A stretch of 64,000 nt of DNA from a virus: positions 1 through 64,000 of IMG/VR virus record IMGVR_UViG_3300047359_000671; one strand, 5' to 3'. Under the pieces are notes generated by a model. That model did no database searches. It had not been told where the DNA came from and saw only the letters and a list, made by a program, of their open reading frames with translations. A program made the position numbers and the translations under genes. Numbering within the stretch: position 1 is the first letter of the stretch; each line of letters begins with the position of its first letter. This document shows positions 2,845-59,057 of the stretch, one piece after another.

Positions 2845-3732
2845 TAATGTTTTGCGTAACCCGTCTTTAAGTGTAGTGAATTTATAATCACCAACTAAAG
2901 ACAACATCTTAGAAACATCTGCGCATCTTCTGGACACACTTCCGGGAGGTGCGTTTTTGTATATAGGGTCTCTGTCAACACCAACAATCTCTCGTACAAT
3001 CTCTGCTACTTCTCTGATAGTGGATTCATTTGGGTTGCCAATATGAACTGTATCGTTTGTAAATTTTTCACCTACTAATAAAGTTAATTCAGCGGCATCG
3101 TCAATGTAAATGAATGCACGTGTTTCGTTGTGACCATATAATACATCATCTCCTGCTTTTAATCGTTCTGCATATTCAGGAATGAAATGTGCTTTCTGTT
3201 CGCTACCGTATGCGTTATGATATCTAATGATAATGTAATCTAGGTCATGTTCTTTATGTGCGGCGTGTACCGCAATCTCTCCCATTAGTTTGCTACCTGC
3301 ATAACTCCAACGTGTGTTGTCTATCTCATTAATTACCCCAACGTTTACTTCTGGTGTGGGGATATCTGTAATACCTAGTTGAACTGCACCAGCATATATC
3401 TCACTGCTACTTGCATACACGAACTTTGTTTTTGAATGCTTATATCTATGAATTAGATTTATGGTAGGAGTCAATGTACTATCTATGACAGATAATGGCT
3501 TTGTGTAGAAGTGTGCTGTATTGTTATATGCACACAAATGATACACTATATCTGCTTCAGGTAAAGATGCTACTCTTTCATTATCAGTCAAATCACATGT
3601 GTCAAAAATGTGTCCGTATGTGTTAGCAGGCTCATGTATATCAGTTAATCGAACATCATGCTCACTGTTCTCCAGTTGCTTTGCTAATGCTTGACCGATA
3701 AATCCAGAAGCGCCAGTGATTAGTATTTTCAT
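2827..3732 (-). CDS. NAD-dependent NDP-sugar epimerase/dehydratase (UDP-glucuronate decarboxylase-like extended SDR)
   Basis: TGASGFIG Rossmann motif, ASSSEIY, YAGSK (YxxxK), RYHNAYG, TRAFIYIDD. Confidence 0.9.
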   Translation of the reverse strand: MKILITGASGFIGQALAKQLENSEHDVRLTDIHEPANTYGHIFDTCDLTDNERVASLPEADIVYHLCAYNNTAHFYTKPLSVIDSTLTPTINLIHRYKHSKTKFVYASSSEIYAGAVQLGITDIPTPEVNVGVINEIDNTRWSYAGSKLMGEIAVHAAHKEHDLDYIIIRYHNAYGSEQKAHFIPEYAERLKAGDDVLYGHNETRAFIYIDDAAELTLLVGEKFTNDTVHIGNPNESTIREVAEIVREIVGVDRDPIYKNAPPGSVSRRCADVSKMLSLVGDYKFTTLKDGLRKTLLFNNR

Positions 3733-24839: not shown

Positions 24840-25499
24840 TTAACTAATTTGTATTGTAACTGTGTAGTCAATTACAATTGTTCTATTTGCTGATAGTAAC
24901 ACAGGATGAAAAGTCACATGTGTTAGCATCAATGATTTTGTTTTATCTAGCAGGTTATTATCTGTAACTCCTGCTATCAGACCAATTTCATCAAATGTAA
25001 ATGCCGTTACAGCATCCGTGTCTGTCGAACTGTCACTCGCTGGAACAGACTCGCCAACTGCCGTTGCATACGCACTATGTGTCATATCTACGGTAAAGTT
25101 AATTTTTGATGTATTATTTGGAACAAACACTCCGCCGCCCAAGTCTTCACCTGGGTAATAAACTGTTGAAACAGTTTCTTGTTCATATGTCGGAGAATAT
25201 AGCGCAGAGTTACTGGCAGTTATTGCTAGTCCTTCATATGTTGGGAATACTCTAGGAGAGCGATATGATAATGTAGTTGTTGAATTACTACCACCATTAC
25301 CGAATTGCATCCAATTAATCGATGGTGCGCCGCCACTTGAATTTATATCAACAGGTTTCCCTGCTAATGCGCTCGCCATGACATAGGCCATATTACCTGG
25401 ATGAATTGCATTTTTCTTTTGCACAAGCACTTCGCCTGAGTCTTTGTCGAAAATCTTCAACTGACCTACTACTTGTGACTGTATTTTATCATTAAACAT
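24840..25499 (-). CDS. Baseplate/tail-fibre-proximal structural protein
   Basis: G.LKIFD..SGEVLV.KKNAIH, FDEIGL, THVTFHPV..SANR motifs, plus position after the giant baseplate protein. Confidence 0.65.
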   Translation of the reverse strand: MFNDKIQSQVVGQLKIFDKDSGEVLVQKKNAIHPGNMAYVMASALAGKPVDINSSGGAPSINWMQFGNGGSNSTTTLSYRSPRVFPTYEGLAITASNSALYSPTYEQETVSTVYYPGEDLGGGVFVPNNTSKINFTVDMTHSAYATAVGESVPASDSSTDTDAVTAFTFDEIGLIAGVTDNNLLDKTKSLMLTHVTFHPVLLSANRTIVIDYTVTIQIS

Positions 25500-48675: not shown

Positions 48676-49246
48676 TCCTTAATTTGCCTTGCATATAATC
48701 TCTAACACTAAAATTCTCTCTAACATCTTTAGGAGCATATGTAGTTGATAATGATAATACAAATGTGTTCATTACAGGTATTCGTACAATTCCTCCTGTA
48801 GACTTAGAGTTGTATTCTAAGTAGTCAATATCCGAATCTAAGTTCCATGCAAAATCTCTTATCATACATGGTACTGCTGTATATAATCCATGTGCATAAA
48901 AACGCAACACAGGAGGTGGGAGTCCAGGACTACTATCTTGACCGAAATTCATTTTCATAGCACTTCTAACCCACAATCCTGCCTTTACTATATACTCTGC
49001 TTGTTCTTCACTTCGTACTACCATAGGCGCAGTAATGTTAATTTCAACGTTTTGTCCACTTTCAAATGCACGTTGTTGAAAGTTATTATGAGTAAGTGCA
49101 TATTCTGAATAGTTTGCACCTTGCATCGATGATACAGTAGGAGTGTACGGAAAGTTTAGTATATTATCTTTCAGACCAGCCAAAGAAAGTCTGCCACTTG
49201 GGTCCCAGAGTCTAACTGGTTGTTTAGTTTCATATGGATTTGCCAT
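48659..49246 (-). CDS. Baseplate tail-tube initiator/cap-like protein (gp48/gp54-like)
   Basis: FPYTP, THNNF, G.PPPVLRF motifs and position at the head of the hub operon. Confidence 0.65.
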   Translation of the reverse strand: MANPYETKQPVRLWDPSGRLSLAGLKDNILNFPYTPTVSSMQGANYSEYALTHNNFQQRAFESGQNVEINITAPMVVRSEEQAEYIVKAGLWVRSAMKMNFGQDSSPGLPPPVLRFYAHGLYTAVPCMIRDFAWNLDSDIDYLEYNSKSTGGIVRIPVMNTFVLSLSTTYAPKDVRENFSVRDYMQGKLRNDGYV

Positions 49247-49385: not shown

Positions 49386-50255
49386 ATGGCAAGAAGACAA
49401 AACTATCTTAATAATAAAGATATGTTAAAACAAATTCACATTTCAAAGGCAAACTATTCATGGTTTGTTGACCGAGAGATGCATCATCAACATGATATTA
49501 TCTTGTATAGTACAGACGAAATTTCAGAATCCGTCGAACAAGCAAGACAAAATCGTGCAGACAGATTGCAGAAACTGGCTTGGGATGCGAATGAAGATAA
49601 AAAGAAGAAACAAGTAGATTTTTTAGTAGACCCTACTTCTTTCTCAGAAGAACAAATAGTATTCAGAGTTATGACTTTCGAACATATTCCAGATGAGCCT
49701 GGAAGAAAGCAGAACCCAAAAACTATTGCAGACACTAAAGTTAAACTAAATTTCCCACCATTCAAACACTACACTTATGTAGATGGCGTTATTAAAGAAG
49801 TGGGATATTCGCATCACAACAGCGATAAAGAATTTGATTTAAGAACAGGTAAAATTACAGCGACATTGGCAAACATGTACATCAAACTAGTAGAACGTTA
49901 TTCACAACGTGCTAACTGGCGTGGTTACACATACATTGATGAAATGCGTGGACAAGCATTGTTACAATTGACACAGATTGGTCTTCAATTTAATGAAGAT
50001 AAATCAGATAACCCATTTGCATATTACACAGCCGCAGTAAACAATTCATTTACACGTGTTCTAAACATTGAAAAGAAAAATCAAGGTATCAGGGACGACT
50101 TGCTAGAAAAAGCAGGTCAGGCACCGAGTTGGACTAGACAATTAGAACATGAGATGAAATCACAAGAACGTTGGCAAAAAGTCATTAAGGCTAAGATTAC
50201 CGATGATGTGATACCTACTGAAACAATCAAAGAGATTTACGCTGATAATGACTAA
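49386..50255 (+). CDS. Late-transcription sigma factor (T4 gp55-like)
   Basis: NYLNNKD, Y..R.NWRGYTY.DEM, FN..KS.NPFAYYT....NSF.R....EKK. Directly precedes gp47. Confidence 0.92.
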   Translation: MARRQNYLNNKDMLKQIHISKANYSWFVDREMHHQHDIILYSTDEISESVEQARQNRADRLQKLAWDANEDKKKKQVDFLVDPTSFSEEQIVFRVMTFEHIPDEPGRKQNPKTIADTKVKLNFPPFKHYTYVDGVIKEVGYSHHNSDKEFDLRTGKITATLANMYIKLVERYSQRANWRGYTYIDEMRGQALLQLTQIGLQFNEDKSDNPFAYYTAAVNNSFTRVLNIEKKNQGIRDDLLEKAGQAPSWTRQLEHEMKSQERWQKVIKAKITDDVIPTETIKEIYADND

Positions 50256-51267
50256 TAATTTATTTAAAAGAGCGGCCTGTTTTACCGACATTCATTATGG
50301 AATGAGGAACAACGCAAAGCAACACAATGAAGATTGTGATGGGTTTGTAGAATGGTTTATCGATGAAGCAAAGAAGAAAGACTGTGATACATGTATCTTT
50401 CTTGGTGATTGGCATCACAATCGTGCTAGTCTTAATATTTCTACAATGAAATATAGTTTAGACGGTTTACGAAAACTAAGTGCCGCGTTTGAGAAAGTTT
50501 ATGTTATCTTAGGTAACCACGATTTATTTTACCGTGAAAGCCGTGATGTAAACTCTGTAGAATTTGTCGAAGAACTAGAGAACGTTGTTCTAGTCAGAGA
50601 CAAACTAGTTGAAGGTGACGTAGCCATTGTAAGTTGGTTAGTTGGCGAAGAATGGAAGAAAGTACCAAAGATTAAAACAAAATATATGTTTGGTCACTTC
50701 GAACTTCCTGCGTTCAAACTAAACGCAATGGTAGAAATGCCAGACCACGGTGGTCTTAAAGGCAACATGTTTGCTAACCAAGATTACGTATTCACCGGGC
50801 ATTTTCACAAACGTCAAGTCAGAGACAATGTGATTTATATGGGGAACGCCTTCCCTCATAACTTTTCAGATGCATGGGACGATGACCGAGGATGGATGTT
50901 CCTCGAATGGGACAAAGAACCAGAGTTCTTTGCTTGGCCTAATGCACCGAAATACAAGACTATTACATTGTCCACTTTATTAGATGAACCAGAGAAGTAT
51001 CTATTGCCTAAAACAAGCGCAAAGATTTCTTTAGACATCGATATCTCTTATGAAGAAGCAAACTTTATTAAAGATACTTTCGTAGAAACATACGACCTAC
51101 GTGATGTGACACTTGTACCTGTAAAAAATACAGAACACGAAACTGATACAGGTGTAGATTTACATTTTGAAACAATCGATGAAATTGTTGTATCACAGTT
51201 AGCATCATTAGATGATAATGGTAGTTTTGACCGAAACGTACTAATTGAGATTTATAATAGTCTCTAG
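50248..51267 (+). CDS. Recombination endonuclease subunit (gp47/Mre11/SbcD-like)
   Basis: TDIHYG, LGDWHH, GNHD, GHFE, GHFH metallophosphoesterase motifs. Confidence 0.95.
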   Translation: MTNNLFKRAACFTDIHYGMRNNAKQHNEDCDGFVEWFIDEAKKKDCDTCIFLGDWHHNRASLNISTMKYSLDGLRKLSAAFEKVYVILGNHDLFYRESRDVNSVEFVEELENVVLVRDKLVEGDVAIVSWLVGEEWKKVPKIKTKYMFGHFELPAFKLNAMVEMPDHGGLKGNMFANQDYVFTGHFHKRQVRDNVIYMGNAFPHNFSDAWDDDRGWMFLEWDKEPEFFAWPNAPKYKTITLSTLLDEPEKYLLPKTSAKISLDIDISYEEANFIKDTFVETYDLRDVTLVPVKNTEHETDTGVDLHFETIDEIVVSQLASLDDNGSFDRNVLIEIYNSL

Positions 51268-51271
51268 CAAT

Positions 51272-51886
51272 ATGAAAAAAATACTGATTACCGGAAACCG
51301 TAACTATGGACTTTGTCAGGCTATTTGTGACCTTTTTGATACTATGGATGATATGCGTTACGATACTGCTAGTCGTAGTACCAATTTTCATTTAGATAGA
51401 CATGATGAACAAGTTCGACTAGCCCAACATTTTATTGATGGAGATTATAATGTTTTCATCAACTGTTCTGCTATTTGGAAGTTTCATCAAGTTATGATAG
51501 CAGAAGAAGTATATAATAAGTGTAATGATAATAACAAAATTGCACATATTATTAATATTGGTTCAACCGCAGATACAGGTGTAAAAGGCAGAACATGGCG
51601 TTATCCTACAGAAAAGAAAGCATTAAAGGCATATAACAGAGACTTGACGTATATGACTATGGGTGGTTCAAATGTTAAAAGCACATTGATATCATTCGGT
51701 AGTTTGACTACTCCTAGTGTTATGAAAAAGCATCCAGATAGAGAGTTAATGGATGTAGAGTACGCCGCACAACTAATTTTGTGGTTGCTTTCTCAACCAG
51801 AATATGTTAATATAAATGAATTATCGGTAGACCCTATACAGATGGGTCATTTTGCCAGGGAGAGGAATAAGTTTGTTAAAGATTAA
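51272..51886 (+). CDS. Short-chain dehydrogenase/reductase family protein
   Basis: KILITG...G, VFINCSA, IINIGS, YPTEK (YxxxK), LLSQPEYVNINE. Confidence 0.8.
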   Translation: MKKILITGNRNYGLCQAICDLFDTMDDMRYDTASRSTNFHLDRHDEQVRLAQHFIDGDYNVFINCSAIWKFHQVMIAEEVYNKCNDNNKIAHIINIGSTADTGVKGRTWRYPTEKKALKAYNRDLTYMTMGGSNVKSTLISFGSLTTPSVMKKHPDRELMDVEYAAQLILWLLSQPEYVNINELSVDPIQMGHFARERNKFVKD

Positions 51887-53669
51887 GAATATAACAGTAC
51901 GAAATTTTATGAGTGTCGGTAATGTCACTCAAGCCGTAACATTAGAACAAGATAATCTAACACTTGTGCTAGGTAATAACTTAGATTTAGGTGGAGATGG
52001 TTCTCGTAATGGTACAGGTAAGACTACACTAATTAATGCATTGTCATATGGATTATACGGCAATGCTCTTACTAATATTCGTAAAGATAACTTAATTAAT
52101 AAAACAAATGGCAAAGGAATGCTTGTCACTATTGATTTCGAATACAATGGAAGTCAATACCGAATTGAACGTGGTCGTAGACCTAATGTCTTTAGATTCA
52201 TCAAAGACGGGATTGACTTAAATGATTCACATGATGCCGCTCAAGGCGAAATGCGTCAAACACAAACTGAACTTGTAGATATTATTGGTATCTCACATGC
52301 AATGTTTAAACATGTTGTGGCTCTAAACACATACACAGAACCGTTCTTATCATTACGTGCCGCAGACCAACGTGAATTAATTGAAGAACTTCTTGGTATC
52401 ACTGAACTTTCTAAGAAAGCAGAAAAACTTAAAGAAGCAATCAAAACAACTAAAGACCAAATCAAAGATGAAGAATACAATCTTAAGTCTGTAGAAGATG
52501 CAAACTCTCGTATTCTAAAATCTATTAAAGATATTGAACGCAGACAACGTATCTGGAATGAAAAACATGACACTGAACTTTCTGAACTTGAAACAGGTCT
52601 TGATGCGTTATCGCATGTAGACATTCAAACAGAAATTGCAAATCACCAAGCATTAATTACATACAACGAACAATCTACTAAATTAACCGAAGCAAAACGT
52701 TGGATTACAAGTATCGAAGCAGATGATGAGAAACAAGAAAGTCTAATTTCAAAATTAAAAAATGAAATTAAATTACTTGAAGACCATAAATGTCATGCGT
52801 GTGGACAAGAATTACACGATGGTAAACAAGAAAAAATTCTTACATCTAAGCAAGAAACTATGAGAGAAGCATCAATGCAAATCTTAAGCAACAGTTCTCA
52901 ATTAGCAGAACACTTAGAAGTAGTAAATGAAATTGGTGAACTTGGTGATAAACCTGCAACGTTCTATCAAAATCTTACAGATGCATACGAGCATCAAAAT
53001 TCCGTAAAAAGTTTAGAAGAACAGATAGAAAAGATTAAGAATACAGAAGACCCTTATGCAGAACAAATCGAAGATATGCGTAATGGTCATTTAGAAGAAT
53101 TAGATTACTCACACATGAATACACTGATTTCATTACGTGAACATCAGGAGTTTCTAATCAAACTATTAACGAATAAAGACAGTTTTATTCGTAAAAAGAT
53201 TATTGACCAAAACTTAAACTATCTAAATTCACGTTTAGATTTCTACTTAGAGAAGTTAGGATTACCACATGATGTTAAATTCTTAAGTGACTTAACAGTA
53301 GAAATAACAGAACTTGGTAGAGATTTAGACTTTGATAATTTATCACGTGGTGAACGCAATAGACTTATCTTAGGTTTAAGTTGGAGTTTTAGAGATATAT
53401 TTGAATCATTGTATAGTACAATTAATGTGTTATTTGTAGACGAATTGATTGACAGTGGTTTAGATACTAATGGTGTGGAAGCCGCATTAGCAGTTCTTAA
53501 GAAGATGGTACGTGAAAGAAATCGTAGCATATTCTTAGTTTCACACCGAGAAGAACTACAAGGACGTGTATCAAATGTTCTTAACGTAGTTAAAGAGAAT
53601 GGGTTTACTAACTTCTCACAAGAAGATGAACCAGTTGACCCTGGAATCGAGTTGGACACAATTATTTAA
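51873..53669 (+). CDS. Recombination ATPase subunit (gp46/Rad50/SbcC-like)
   Basis: NFMSVGN, NGTGKTT Walker A, CHAC zinc hook, LSRGE signature, LFVDE Walker B, VSH. Likely TTG start at 51873 after GAGG. Confidence 0.95.
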   Translation: MLKIKNITVRNFMSVGNVTQAVTLEQDNLTLVLGNNLDLGGDGSRNGTGKTTLINALSYGLYGNALTNIRKDNLINKTNGKGMLVTIDFEYNGSQYRIERGRRPNVFRFIKDGIDLNDSHDAAQGEMRQTQTELVDIIGISHAMFKHVVALNTYTEPFLSLRAADQRELIEELLGITELSKKAEKLKEAIKTTKDQIKDEEYNLKSVEDANSRILKSIKDIERRQRIWNEKHDTELSELETGLDALSHVDIQTEIANHQALITYNEQSTKLTEAKRWITSIEADDEKQESLISKLKNEIKLLEDHKCHACGQELHDGKQEKILTSKQETMREASMQILSNSSQLAEHLEVVNEIGELGDKPATFYQNLTDAYEHQNSVKSLEEQIEKIKNTEDPYAEQIEDMRNGHLEELDYSHMNTLISLREHQEFLIKLLTNKDSFIRKKIIDQNLNYLNSRLDFYLEKLGLPHDVKFLSDLTVEITELGRDLDFDNLSRGERNRLILGLSWSFRDIFESLYSTINVLFVDELIDSGLDTNGVEAALAVLKKMVRERNRSIFLVSHREELQGRVSNVLNVVKENGFTNFSQEDEPVDPGIELDTII

Positions 53670-53684
53670 AGGAGGTGAAAACCA

Positions 53685-53861
53685 ATGAGCATACACGAAC
53701 AAATTGTAGAACAATACGAAGCATACCTAAGCGAACACGAAGCGTGGGAAACAAAGGGTGTAAAGGCTGCGGCCGCTAGAGCAAGAAAGGCTTTAGGTGA
53801 AATTGGAAAACTTACGAAAGAAAGACGTAAAGAAATCCAAGAAAAGAAAAATAATATGTAA
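53685..53861 (+). CDS. Histone H1-like (Hc1-family) small basic protein, 58 aa (not in the ORF track)
   Basis: MSIHEQIVEQYEAYLSEHEAWETKGVKAAAARARKALGEIGKLTKERRKEIQEKKNNM, with a strong AAGGAGGTG RBS. Confidence 0.82.
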   Translation: MSIHEQIVEQYEAYLSEHEAWETKGVKAAAARARKALGEIGKLTKERRKEIQEKKNNM

Positions 53862-53879: not shown

Positions 53880-53909
53880 TTGACAATTGTAATACTTTTG
53901 TGTTATAAT
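53880..53909 (+). promoter_or_regulatory. Consensus sigma70 promoter
   Basis: TTGACA-18 nt-TATAAT with extended TG and an A-rich upstream tract. Confidence 0.85.
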
Positions 53910-53914
53910 TAATA

Positions 53915-54032
53915 CATAATCAAAGACGCTAAGTGTCTCCTCTCAACCTCTCTCAACGAGGCGTCTAAGATTAGTTTCTCAACACAGAGAACAAAAAACT
54001 AAAAGCCCGGTTCTAGTAACTGGGCTTTTTTT
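53915..54032 (+). ncRNA. Candidate small RNA (~118 nt)
   Basis: Bounded by a promoter and a terminator and contains no ATG. AGACGC/GCGTCT stem; TCTCAAC occurs three times. Confidence 0.68.
54001..54032 (+). terminator. Rho-independent terminator
   Basis: AAAA-GCCCGGTT-CTAGT-AACTGGGC-TTTTTTT. Confidence 0.9.
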
Positions 54033-54035
54033 ATA

Positions 54036-54043
54036 CATAAATA
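54036..54043 (+). promoter_or_regulatory. Late promoter box CATAAATA
   Basis: Immediately after the terminator and upstream of the ORF at 54070. Confidence 0.65.
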
Positions 54044-54069
54044 CTATCAAGCAACGAAAGGAAATCACA

Positions 54070-54252
54070 GTGGCAAATCAACTATCAACAGAACGAATGG
54101 AAGAAATCGAAAGAGTTCGTAAACTAGCAGAAGACTTTAAGAAAAAGGGAGGCAAGATTACTGTCTGTGAAACCGGTGAAGTAACTGACCAAGGTAAGAT
54201 TAGTTACAAATTTAGACGACCTCGACCTAAAGTAAAGAATGAACTTAAGTAA
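54070..54252 (+). CDS. Small basic hypothetical protein
   Basis: AAGGA RBS, GTG start, F.KKGGKITVC motif. Confidence 0.7.
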   Translation: MANQLSTERMEEIERVRKLAEDFKKKGGKITVCETGEVTDQGKISYKFRRPRPKVKNELK

Positions 54253-54518: not shown

Positions 54519-54725
54519 ATGAAGATATACTTAATCATTACTTTCGTTCTCATTAGTGGTTCAGAACAAATTATGCCACAGTTCCCACCAAAAGAGGTTA
54601 CAACTATGGAGATTTGTGAACGTAAAAAAGCGGCAGCGGAAGAATACTTTACATATCAATTAGAGAATAAACCAGTTAAGTCTATAGCAGGATTTAACGT
54701 ACAGTGCCAGGAAATAGAATCATAA
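54519..54725 (+). CDS. Small secreted or membrane-anchored protein with two Cys
   Basis: MKIYLIITFVLISG hydrophobic N-terminus; MEICE and VQCQE. Confidence 0.65.
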   Translation: MKIYLIITFVLISGSEQIMPQFPPKEVTTMEICERKKAAAEEYFTYQLENKPVKSIAGFNVQCQEIES

Positions 54726-55157
54726 TTTTTTACTAATGCTTTCTAAGTATTCAGTTAATATTTTAGAACTTCCTACTCTAACATTAATAATCCCGTTGTA
54801 ATATTCATCGGTTTCTAACACTCGTCGGTCAAACTGTTCTTTTGCTTCGACATAACTCAAAGCACCACGACTCGGACAGTAGTGTAGAATTTCACGCATA
54901 AACTTGTTGGGACCTAATTTTTTTACATCAGCAATTAAATGTTCAGAAGAACCCCAATAGTCTCGCCAATCACTCTCTTTAAACCCACGTCTTTTGTTTT
55001 TTCTTCCTTTAAGAGGTGGTTTCGTTGTTTTAAATCTTGCTAACTTCTTACCCACATACTTTCGGTTGTTTTCAAGATTCGTAATTAAATACACAAATCC
55101 CTCAACATCTTCGGGTAATTCATTTACCACTTCTCCGTTATATTTCCAATCGCTCAT
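54720..55157 (-). CDS. GIY-YIG endonuclease (T4 endonuclease II/DenA-like)
   Basis: GFVYLITN...RKYVGKK, ESDWRDYWGSS, F.REIL, E..EQF, YYNG.I. Confidence 0.88.
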   Translation of the reverse strand: MSDWKYNGEVVNELPEDVEGFVYLITNLENNRKYVGKKLARFKTTKPPLKGRKNKRRGFKESDWRDYWGSSEHLIADVKKLGPNKFMREILHYCPSRGALSYVEAKEQFDRRVLETDEYYNGIINVRVGSSKILTEYLESISKKL

Positions 55158-56965: not shown

Positions 56966-56999
56966 ACAGAAGTCAACCTTTTTTTTGAGAGAGAACAAC

Positions 57000-59057
57000 A
57001 TGGCAGACACACAAGATGTATATATTTCTGGTTATGACCCCAATTTACCAGACTGGGCGCTCGAAGCCACACAAAAACAGATAGCATCAGCACTTACGTT
57101 AGCCAATGTGGGCTCTACAAACATGCTTAAATTTCTTAAAGCAATATCTAATAATGAACAGATTTCGGTATCAGAACTTACCAAAGCAGTCAACGAACTA
57201 AAACAAGTAAAAGGTAAGATTGATGAAGGTACAAAACAAGAACAGAGGTCGTCACAACAAGAGGCAGCCCAAGATAGAAAAACAAATTCGTTCTTTGAGC
57301 GTCTAGTTAATTTACAAACTAAACAAAATAATTTAGAAAAACAACTACTAGATGAAACTAAGAAGAAACAAGCAGAACGACAGATACGTGGCGGTTTCAC
57401 AGACGAAGACTTACAGACACAAGAGTCTATGGACAAGTTAAAAAACCTAGGTAAGGGATTCAAAGCAGTAGCATCTGCATCAGCAGTAGCATCAGCAGGA
57501 ATTGAATCTGCATTTAGGCAAGGTTTTATGGACAGATTTGATATGGCACAAGAAATGCGACAATCTGGATTGTTGGCAGGGCTAGATTCTGCTTCTGCTG
57601 GATTATTGAATATGTCAGAAACAATTACAGATGCTAACTTTACTTTTGGTGAAGCCGCAGAATTCACAAAAAGATTTTCACAAGCAGTAGGTGTAACTGG
57701 GGTGCAGAGTGCGTTGCAGTTTGCAGACTCTATAGCAACAGGTGATGACGGGATGATGGCGAAACTAGGTATAGAGTTTGGCCAAGTTGCAAATATGACA
57801 GGCATGTATTTAGAGTCATTAAGAATTGCAGGTCAATTGAACGGTCGTTCTGACCAACAACTGCGTTCTGGTATGGATGACTTTATGAATAATGTAGTTA
57901 GCACAGCAAACGTATTAAAAGTTTCAGTTGAAGAGGCCGCAGAAATGATGATGAAAACGTTGGATACATCAGATACTGGTTTATTAGCAACTATGAATCA
58001 AGACCAAGCCGCAACGATTGAAAATGCACTAAGGTCTTTCGGTTCGCAAGGTGGACCTTTGATGGAAGCACTTTCTGCCAGATTGACAGCAGGTGACCAA
58101 GGAACATTCTTAAGAACAGAACAGTTTCAAGGATTACAAGGTACTGCATTAGGTCAAGAAATGTTACCATTTATTGAACAGATGGCACGTGTAGTTGAAG
58201 AAGGTGGAGATTTTCAAGGGTTCTTATCTAACAATATGGGGGATATGGCAGAGCGTGTTAGAGATTTGGCGTCACAAGCGGGTGTACGAGAACAACTTGT
58301 GGATGACCCACAATTAGCATCATTAGTCGGTGCGCTAATGCAACAAGCACAAAATATCGAAGATGCGGCAAAAGGAATGCCACAGTTAGATGAAGCAGGT
58401 AGAACTGGTCTTGTTAAGACAGAGTTAGATAGACAGGCTATCATTGCATCAGAAGATGTTGTAAACGAAAGTATGGGCGACTTTGTAGGAAATATGCAAA
58501 TATTGAATACGACACAAGCAGAATTAATAGAACAAGCACGTAAATCATTTAAAAATATATCAGGAATAACTGACATTGTTAATAACGTAGGAACTGCCCT
58601 AACCGTATTGACTAGAGTTGCAACTGAATTTGGTCTTTCACTTATAGACCTAGGAATTAATTCTGACCGATATGACGGGTTAGAAGATGCGATGAAATTA
58701 CAAGATATACAGAATAATCTAAATGGAAATGAAACACCTTCTGATAGAACTAATGTACAATCTATAGTAGATGTACAAAATGCGGCAGTTGAGTTGAGTG
58801 CTAAAGTAGATGCACCACAAACACATGAAGCAGTGTTTAATACATTAGCAGAACAATTGCGCAATTCTAATGTTACGTCTGAAGAACAATTAACACAACT
58901 CATTGACCTATTAAAACAAAATCAAGCAAATGCAGAAACAAGAATGAATGCTTCGCCAATAGGTTCGGATGAAAGACAAATAGAAATGCAAAATAACAAT
59001 GAATATAATCAATTAATATCATCTATTAATGACCTTCTAACGGAATTGAGACAATAA
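57000..59057 (+). CDS. Tail tape measure-like protein
   Basis: Long helical Ala/Gln/Met-rich protein with no Cys, divergent from the tail chaperone. Likely ATG at 57000. Confidence 0.7.
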   Translation: MADTQDVYISGYDPNLPDWALEATQKQIASALTLANVGSTNMLKFLKAISNNEQISVSELTKAVNELKQVKGKIDEGTKQEQRSSQQEAAQDRKTNSFFERLVNLQTKQNNLEKQLLDETKKKQAERQIRGGFTDEDLQTQESMDKLKNLGKGFKAVASASAVASAGIESAFRQGFMDRFDMAQEMRQSGLLAGLDSASAGLLNMSETITDANFTFGEAAEFTKRFSQAVGVTGVQSALQFADSIATGDDGMMAKLGIEFGQVANMTGMYLESLRIAGQLNGRSDQQLRSGMDDFMNNVVSTANVLKVSVEEAAEMMMKTLDTSDTGLLATMNQDQAATIENALRSFGSQGGPLMEALSARLTAGDQGTFLRTEQFQGLQGTALGQEMLPFIEQMARVVEEGGDFQGFLSNNMGDMAERVRDLASQAGVREQLVDDPQLASLVGALMQQAQNIEDAAKGMPQLDEAGRTGLVKTELDRQAIIASEDVVNESMGDFVGNMQILNTTQAELIEQARKSFKNISGITDIVNNVGTALTVLTRVATEFGLSLIDLGINSDRYDGLEDAMKLQDIQNNLNGNETPSDRTNVQSIVDVQNAAVELSAKVDAPQTHEAVFNTLAEQLRNSNVTSEEQLTQLIDLLKQNQANAETRMNASPIGSDERQIEMQNNNEYNQLISSINDLLTELRQ

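Follow-up and report, generated by a model that had tools for sequence, protein, structure and literature searches.

Positions 53916 to 54032 (+ strand) of the DNA analysed here, a stretch of 64,000 nucleotides to which we refer as the window, constitute a bona fide small-RNA gene, ~117 nt long, that was uncatalogued before. The RNA consists of a first hairpin (P1) with its loop, a second hairpin (SL2), a linker, and a terminator, an architecture known from trans-acting base-pairing sRNAs. As the best explanation of its function, favoured tentatively and at slightly less than an even chance, we propose that the frozen CU-rich loop pairs in trans with purine-rich ribosome-binding sites (RBSs) and thereby blocks initiation.

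The window belongs to an IMG/VR virus record of 91 kb (estimated to be 24 % complete), and family searches of the window revealed that a T4-type gene module surrounds the RNA gene. Small ORFs, a SegE-type GIY-YIG nuclease, and a baseplate hub gene are located on its 3' side. The following genes are relevant to the argument:

50248–51267: SbcD/gp47-like gene
51873–53669, + strand: SbcC/gp46-like gene with an apparent TTG start at 51873
53685–53861, + strand: 58-aa Hc1-like (chlamydial histone H1-like) gene, upstream of the RNA (Pfam Hc1, 8e-12)
54070–54252, + strand: gene of a 60-aa SutA-RBD-type small protein with a GTG start, downstream of the RNA
54720–55157, − strand: SegE-type GIY-YIG homing endonuclease gene (Pfam, 1.8e-34), beside a gene-free stretch

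As judged by gp46, the closest isolates are Pseudomonas phage PA5oct (51 % amino acid identity), Sinorhizobium phage Phosso, and Agrobacterium phage Atu_ph07. Since a relative with the same RNA (G001) is a complete genome of 342,607 bp with terminal repeats, the phage can be regarded as an uncultured marine giant phage. In the collection of phage isolates, no DNA homologue of the RNA locus was found, and the Hc1-like gene occurs there only in two unannotated 'Marine virus AG-345' records. Relatives of the Hc1-like gene are encoded at more than 517 viral-contig loci, and the slot 3' of the gene is highly variable between phages; in relatives that lack the sRNA (L045, L052, L056, L058, L063, and L084), for example, a cspA-type cold-shock gene that is preceded by a GC-rich hairpin fills this slot after the Hc1-like gene (at ~3175–3450).

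The initial annotation had described a sigma70 promoter and a terminator around ~118 nt without ATG, i. e., a stand-alone and presumably early small non-coding RNA gene, and this description holds. With its extended −10 element, the promoter reaches 12/12 and is the sole perfect match within the 3 kb scanned; as it is of the host sigma70 type and near-perfect, transcription is presumably early and strong. Neither an ATG nor an ORF of at least 30 aa is present in 53916–54032, and the terminator, although missed by a simple terminator scan, is evident from the fold and the relatives. The gene and its immediate surroundings comprise these elements:

53880–53909, + strand: sigma70-type promoter with TTGACA (53880–53885), an 18-nt spacer with TG (53901–53902), and TATAAT (53904–53909); predicted start at ~53916
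53917–53973, + strand: P1 hairpin with arms 53917–53930 and 53960–53973, including AGACGC/GCGTCT (fold and covariation)
53931–53959, + strand: pyrimidine-rich apical loop of ~29 nt (fold)
53933–53955, + strand: invariant single-stranded core GUGUCUCCUCUCAACCUCUCUCA of 23 nt with two anti-SD-like elements, UCUCCU and CCUCUCUC
53976–53991, + strand: SL2 hairpin with a UCUC/GAGA stem (fold; double changes in 3 of 4 pairs, with clear compensatory variants in group E)
54001–54032, + strand: intrinsic terminator with a 12-bp stem, a 5-nt loop, and a U7 tail (fold and relatives)
54037–54043, + strand: ATAAATA, a putative late-promoter-like box of the T4 type, located after the terminator and ahead of the following gene

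The ~117-nt RNA folds with a minimum free energy (MFE) of −34.1 kcal/mol (z = −5.1), which was equalled by none of 200 shuffles. The stem AGACGC/GCGTCT, recognised at the outset, indeed lies within P1, and an A-rich linker connects SL2 with the U-tailed terminator. Judged from the sequence, its own promoter and terminator and the absence of an ORF would make the RNA an independent transcription unit, as is typical of trans-acting sRNAs. A peptide translated from a GTG at 53935 was considered and rejected, as it would comprise 11 codons here, has no nearby stop in the relatives, and lacks an SD; moreover, no third-codon-type variation occurs in the invariant core of 21 sequences, which thus evolves unlike coding sequence. 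Rfam 15 gave no match at gathering thresholds across the whole window. The best permissive hits were all below threshold (L10_leader with 29.4 vs. 44, MicC with 27.6 vs. 90, and RF02278 with 25.1 vs. 50), and in the two permissive alignments that were displayed the conserved match is the terminator. tRNA or tmRNA genes were not detected in the window by ARAGORN.

The RNA represents a family that is found on ~50 uncultured aquatic, mostly marine, giant-phage contigs (IMG/VR) and comprises 29 distinct sequences; exact loop-word searches accounted for 33, 9, and 4 viral contigs, to which the variant groups F and G are added. Every relative has a TTGAC(A/T) −35 element, a TATAAT-like −10 element, and its own terminator with a GC-rich hairpin and a U-run, the sequence of which differs from group to group at a constant position. 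In the 342-kb genomes G001 (complete) and G005, the RNA is present in a single copy. A search of PA5oct and Atu_ph07 with a covariance model (R1) returned no credible copy, and the four ncRNAs published for PA5oct are other loci (PMC7318152).

A joint treatment of all groups with MAFFT and RNAalifold gave no structure because the loop lengths differ between groups, and a covariance model from one subgroup was used instead to align 21 distinct sequences. In this alignment, which was fitted to the model and thus favours structure, 93.2 % of the P1 and SL2 cells are paired, as compared to 46–53 % with the 3' partner slid, and double changes are found in 10 of 15 pairs; none of 500 shuffles attained the observed values. 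P1 itself shows double changes in 7 of 11 pairs (alignment A5), with the arms GACGC/GCGUC, GAUGC/GCAUC, GAAGU/ACUUC, or GAAGUC/GGCUUC depending on the group. In addition, all 29 variants independently fold into the same three elements, and G-U pairs establish the strand of the RNA.

The loop core GUGUCUCCUCUCAACCUCUCUCA does not vary among the 21 aligned sequences, whereas the neighbouring SutA-like and Hc1-like proteins retain only 26–41 % and 65–98 % identity, respectively. Motif conservation and covariation, by which the initial annotation had suggested its proposal be checked, were hence both found. Its exposed CU-rich, anti-SD-like loop was likewise borne out: the mean unpaired probability of the core across the 29 variants is 0.90, so that the RNA possesses the conserved and accessible seed that is characteristic of trans-acting sRNAs. 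More distant groups have a shorter core around CUCUCAAC or CUCUCUAAC, and tandem repeat units of the type CUCUCA(A/U)C occur in the loops of all groups. The three UCUCAAC copies on which attention had initially been focused are present (at 53941, 53951, and 53977, i. e., within 43 nt), yet they do not form a conserved unit, since UCUCAUC replaces the second in most relatives and the third is simply the 5' arm of SL2. With 8 occurrences as compared to 10 expected, the heptamer is not enriched in the whole window, and only its local clustering is therefore special. Similarly, the inner CCTC/GAGG hairpin (CCUC/GAGG in the RNA) exists but is restricted to this lineage. Contigs of Stahlbacteria/WOR-3 metagenome-assembled genomes (L115–L117) contain an exact shared 20-mer but lack the terminator, both arms of P1, and the remainder of the core; they were discarded as unrelated, the match probably being due to chance or to low-complexity coding sequence.

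Public data furthermore attest to the presence of the stretch in nature. It was found in 20 runs from 19 studies, six of the runs being RNA libraries, and can thus be called abundant in seawater data sets. In four metatranscriptomes from four studies, contigs extend over gp46, the Hc1-like gene, and the RNA as far as 53961–53987, while contigs on the 3' side of the terminator begin at 54053 and 54065; contig data of this kind give no 5' end, strand, or level, and the gap at 54005–54051 is no evidence when taken alone. Summed depth falls across the terminator from 24 to 5, 16 to 4, 7 to 0, and 10 to 0, which hints, weakly to moderately, at a terminator that is active in nature and is read through by about one fifth of transcription. 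As contigs bridge the Hc1-like gene, the promoter, and the RNA at equal depth, the RNA also constitutes the 3' end of the Hc1-like message.

How might such an RNA act? According to the explanation that we prefer, host sigma70 RNA polymerase would transcribe the ~117-nt RNA up to the intrinsic terminator, and the covarying P1 stem would display the ~29-nt unstructured, pyrimidine-rich loop with a 23-nt core that is frozen across the clade. The loop could then pair with purine-rich RBSs, and translation initiation would be blocked on a set of mRNAs, which may be host messages and perhaps a few phage ones, with the gp46 start as the best conserved phage candidate. In several lineages, in which the SutA-type gene would be transcribed by terminator read-through only, the RNA may double as a terminated leader. 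RBS pairing appears to be the most likely mechanism because the loop complements both the AGGAGA SD and GAGAGAGG-type sites: UCUCCU is the exact complement of AGGAGA, the commonest SD of the phage, and CCUCUCUC that of the GAGAGAGG-type sites. By complementarity, the loop would accordingly qualify as an anti-SD loop of the AbcR/RsaE-like class. The commonest 5-mers upstream of starts are GGAGA (21 of 79) and AGGAG (18 of 79). Purine-rich candidate start regions are those of gp46, of the gene starting at 57000, and of the AGGAGACA type; together with two matches in G001, the individual sites are:

51858–51875, + strand: gp46 start region GGGAGAGGA-N6-TTG with a 7-nt complement of UCCUCUC
56985–57010, + strand: start region of a 685-aa gene with TTGAGAGAG, the ATG at 57000, and then GGCAGACAC
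G001, C1:4132–4722, − strand: 196-aa accessory membrane protein with a predicted signal peptide and C-terminal anchor; 13-nt complement at the start codon
G001, 218231–218596, + strand: 121-aa acidic, His-rich accessory protein; 11-nt complement at the start codon

The gp46 leader is long and purine-rich and overlaps the end of an upstream 213-aa ORF. All sRNA-bearing relatives retain the TTG start, and all sRNA-bearing loci have GCAAGAGAGAGGUA-N-UUG at this position, which is complementary to ACCUCUCUC or UCCUCUC; relatives without the sRNA have an unrelated gp46 start region. In the ranking of start regions, the site is placed 6th of 79, 3rd of 446, 32nd of 452, 2nd of 97, and 6th of 75 in five genomes, and gp46 is 2nd among 46 orthologue groups. 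It is therefore a suggestive, and the best conserved, phage candidate target, with the reservation that the genomes are related, that its selection was partly post hoc, and that the site lies inside the upstream ORF. In G001, a 13-nt perfect match, AGAGGAGACACUU, directly abuts the ATG of an accessory gene (P = 0.011 vs. shuffles) and is complemented by a further match of 11 nt; both correspond to the 5' half of the loop. An extended target (at least 13 of 16 positions) was found neither in G001 nor in four other records, except for the RNA gene itself, and C or CA is only slightly enriched after GGAGA. Several observations argue against the preferred explanation. No target is statistically secure, start regions with a loop complement of at least 7 nt being no more frequent than for dinucleotide-shuffled loops (see below); a frozen loop of 23 nt exceeds the 6–9 nt that a seed needs; RNA contigs enter the RNA from the Hc1-like gene across the promoter without a change in depth; and a role purely in trans leaves the close association with the SutA-like gene unexplained.

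This linkage is, in our view, the most interesting unexplained feature of the RNA. In 26 of the first 27 variants, the SutA-like gene is located directly 3' of the RNA, with 11–68 nt between the U-tail and its start, and the 27th locus is cut off. The upstream gene in turn varies (Hc1-like, gp46, and at least four others), which indicates that the RNA and the SutA-like gene move as a cassette. Pfam PF20661 (SutA-RBD) matches 12 of 12 tested members of the protein family (best 1e-8); the copy in the window reaches 16.6 bits against a cut-off of 29.3, and many database homologues have the domain precomputed. A match to Pseudomonas aeruginosa SutA in the PDB (7f0r_G, a chain of 109 residues) has a value of 4.5e-5, the proteins discussed here being ~60 aa long, and NCBIfam assigned 11 of 12 to the PFL_1563 small-protein family and 9 of 12 to SutA. 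Characteristic is the motif FxKKGGKI...EG..T...YKFR, followed by a conserved basic, YKFR-K-rich tail that replaces the acidic tails of SutA. More than 130 SutA-like homologues of ~60 aa occur in marine data, and no match was found in isolate phages.

The arrangement suggests an unlikely, albeit not far-fetched, alternative in which the repeats of the loop bind a protein such as S1, Rho, cold-shock proteins, Hfq, or the SutA-type protein, so that the RNA would titrate its partner or be carried to RNA polymerase. A run of 23 invariant nt, longer than a seed requires, the tandem repeats seen in the loops of every group, the joint occurrence of both genes behind at least five different upstream genes, the conserved basic tail, and the fact that no secure RNA target was found would all fit such a partner. 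However, Rfam scans gave no match to a known protein-binding RNA motif, and in G005, in which the RNA follows gp46, a promoter and a 381-aa gene intervene before the SutA-like gene is reached at a distance of 1.3 kb. In addition, a stoichiometric sponge for S1 or Rho would presumably need a very high copy number. A particularly elaborate scenario, which we judge to be quite improbable, is a two-part host-takeover module in which the basic tail of the protein (or a conserved host factor) would recognise the loop and bring the RNA to RNA polymerase or the ribosome. If true, this would be an RNA-protein device for reprogramming host transcription or translation; we know of no counterpart to it described among phage sRNAs.

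Clearly unlikely as a complete account is also a role purely in cis, by which the RNA would be a leader or attenuator and regulated termination would set the amount of SutA-like mRNA. The short distance between the two genes speaks for it, as does the downstream depth of about one fifth of that upstream in two RNA runs. In groups B, C, and D as well as the L087–L109 types, only an SD is found between the U-tail and the SutA-like start, and expression of the gene therefore needs read-through. In groups A and F, however, a late-type ATAAATACT box intervenes between the terminator and the SutA-like gene, and a full sigma70 promoter does so in groups E and G. As G005 likewise has a new sigma70 promoter 3' of the terminator, the RNA is its own unit in these three lineages. 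In some lineages it hence stands alone as a unit, and in others it is a terminated leader of the SutA-like gene. Furthermore, none of the 29 MFE folds contains an alternative antiterminator pairing, and the 1.3 kb that separate the genes in G005 are difficult to reconcile with a leader. Pairing of the loop with the start of the downstream SutA-like gene, in the manner of c4 RNA, was also considered and rejected, as its median quantile of 0.57 is no better than that of random start regions. The ATAAATACT-type box is a variant of the T4 late promoter that, in five genomes (L161–L170), is also found ahead of the gp25-like and 219-aa late genes.

Of still lower probability is the target set proposed by the initial annotation, namely that an early sRNA silences premature translation of late tail and baseplate mRNAs with AGAGAG-type RBSs. 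Such sites do exist at 25499, 38659, 39017, and 57000 (the fifth one listed, at 49246, reads AGGAGAG), and groups A, C, and E retain this type of site at their orthologues of the gp25-like, 219-aa, and 57000 genes, which is mildly interesting for the gp25-like and 219-aa late genes. In G005, the loop of which lacks the CUCUCUC run, two of the sites read GCGAGAC and GGAGUAA instead. The computed duplex of GAGAG sites is stronger with the loop than with the canonical 16S tail, and the start region at 57000 is the best in the genome, its bipartite site of 9 + 8 nt forming a computed duplex of −24.1 kcal/mol that ranks first among 78 start regions and second in the 91 kb. Several results nevertheless contradict this proposal. 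Start regions with a loop complement of at least 7 nt were not in excess over dinucleotide-shuffled loops in any of five genomes (P = 0.19, 0.16, 0.09, 0.71, and 0.98), and the gp25-like gene and the 57000 orthologue rank only 7th and 10th of 46 groups. GAGAG, of which the loop likewise contains an exact complement, differs from the consensus GGAGA by a single base and occurs in only 6 of 79 start regions. The 9-mer TTGAGAGAG at 56985–56993 is, as had been noted, a perfect complement of 53948–53956, but a single match of 9 nt is at chance level; in the orthologues, the GAGAG part persists and the GGCAGACAC half is not conserved, which weakens the case for this strong site as a target. The 'tape measure' label of the gene is putative, as the 685-aa protein (57000–59057, + strand, immediately 5' of the portal gene) matched neither Pfam nor PHROG families. 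Finally, late genes with late-type promoters should need no early silencing. Pairing of the loop with conserved host rRNA (for example in the helix-12 loop of 16S or the sarcin-ricin loop of 23S rRNA) so as to disturb ribosomes would supply an invariant partner for an invariant loop, but is highly improbable because the best duplexes with E. coli, used as a host proxy (−24.6 near 2640 of the 23S and −21.6 near 293 of the 16S rRNA), were equalled or surpassed by 43 % of composition-matched shuffled loops on the same operon.

To our knowledge, a role has been assigned to few small RNAs of lytic phages, and hardly any such RNA has been described from giant phages of uncultured marine origin. Against this background, the present RNA offers unusually clean functional evidence, that is, covarying stems, a frozen loop of 23 nt, a single copy per genome, and presence in RNA libraries, and as a defined and short element it can be synthesised. 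What is new is its position nearly always directly 5' of the gene for a ~60-aa SutA-type polymerase-binding protein in a movable cassette. Among known systems, structured RNAs such as lambda nut, recognised by N, and HK022 put resemble it insofar as a structured RNA lies behind a strong early promoter, the gene of a small basic, polymerase-directed protein adjoins, and a terminator is to be read through. The RNA described here differs by its one copy per genome and by the separate promoter after the terminator in three lineages. If the SutA-type protein were indeed its partner, a new kind of polymerase-directed RNA-protein module would emerge.

The c4 antisense RNA of phages P1 and P7 (Rfam C4, RF01695), the loops of which are thought to mask an RBS, is likewise a phage-encoded small RNA upstream of associated genes. 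It is processed from an operon transcript, whereas the RNA in question has its own terminator, has no Rfam match to c4, and carries a loop that does not match the start of the next gene. Closer in design are the trans-acting sRNAs that block the SD with CU- or C-rich loops, i. e., AbcR1/2 of alphaproteobacteria, RsaE/RoxS of Firmicutes, and the toxic sRNA RF02278 of Betaproteobacteria. They share with the phage RNA an own promoter and terminator, a size of ~100 nt, and duplicated unpaired, pyrimidine-rich anti-SD-like motifs. Homology is not apparent, the weak match to RF02278 (25 vs. 50) takes in the terminator, and the RNA stands apart by its origin from a lytic-type giant phage, its frozen core of 23 nt, and targets that are candidates only. 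A functional parallel may conceivably be found in T4 RegA, a protein that acts as translational repressor of early mRNAs: provided that gp46 and other early messages are targeted, both would dampen translation at early T4-type starts, RegA as a protein and the present molecule as an RNA. Should RBS blocking hold true, the latter would thus represent an RNA counterpart of protein repressors such as RegA.
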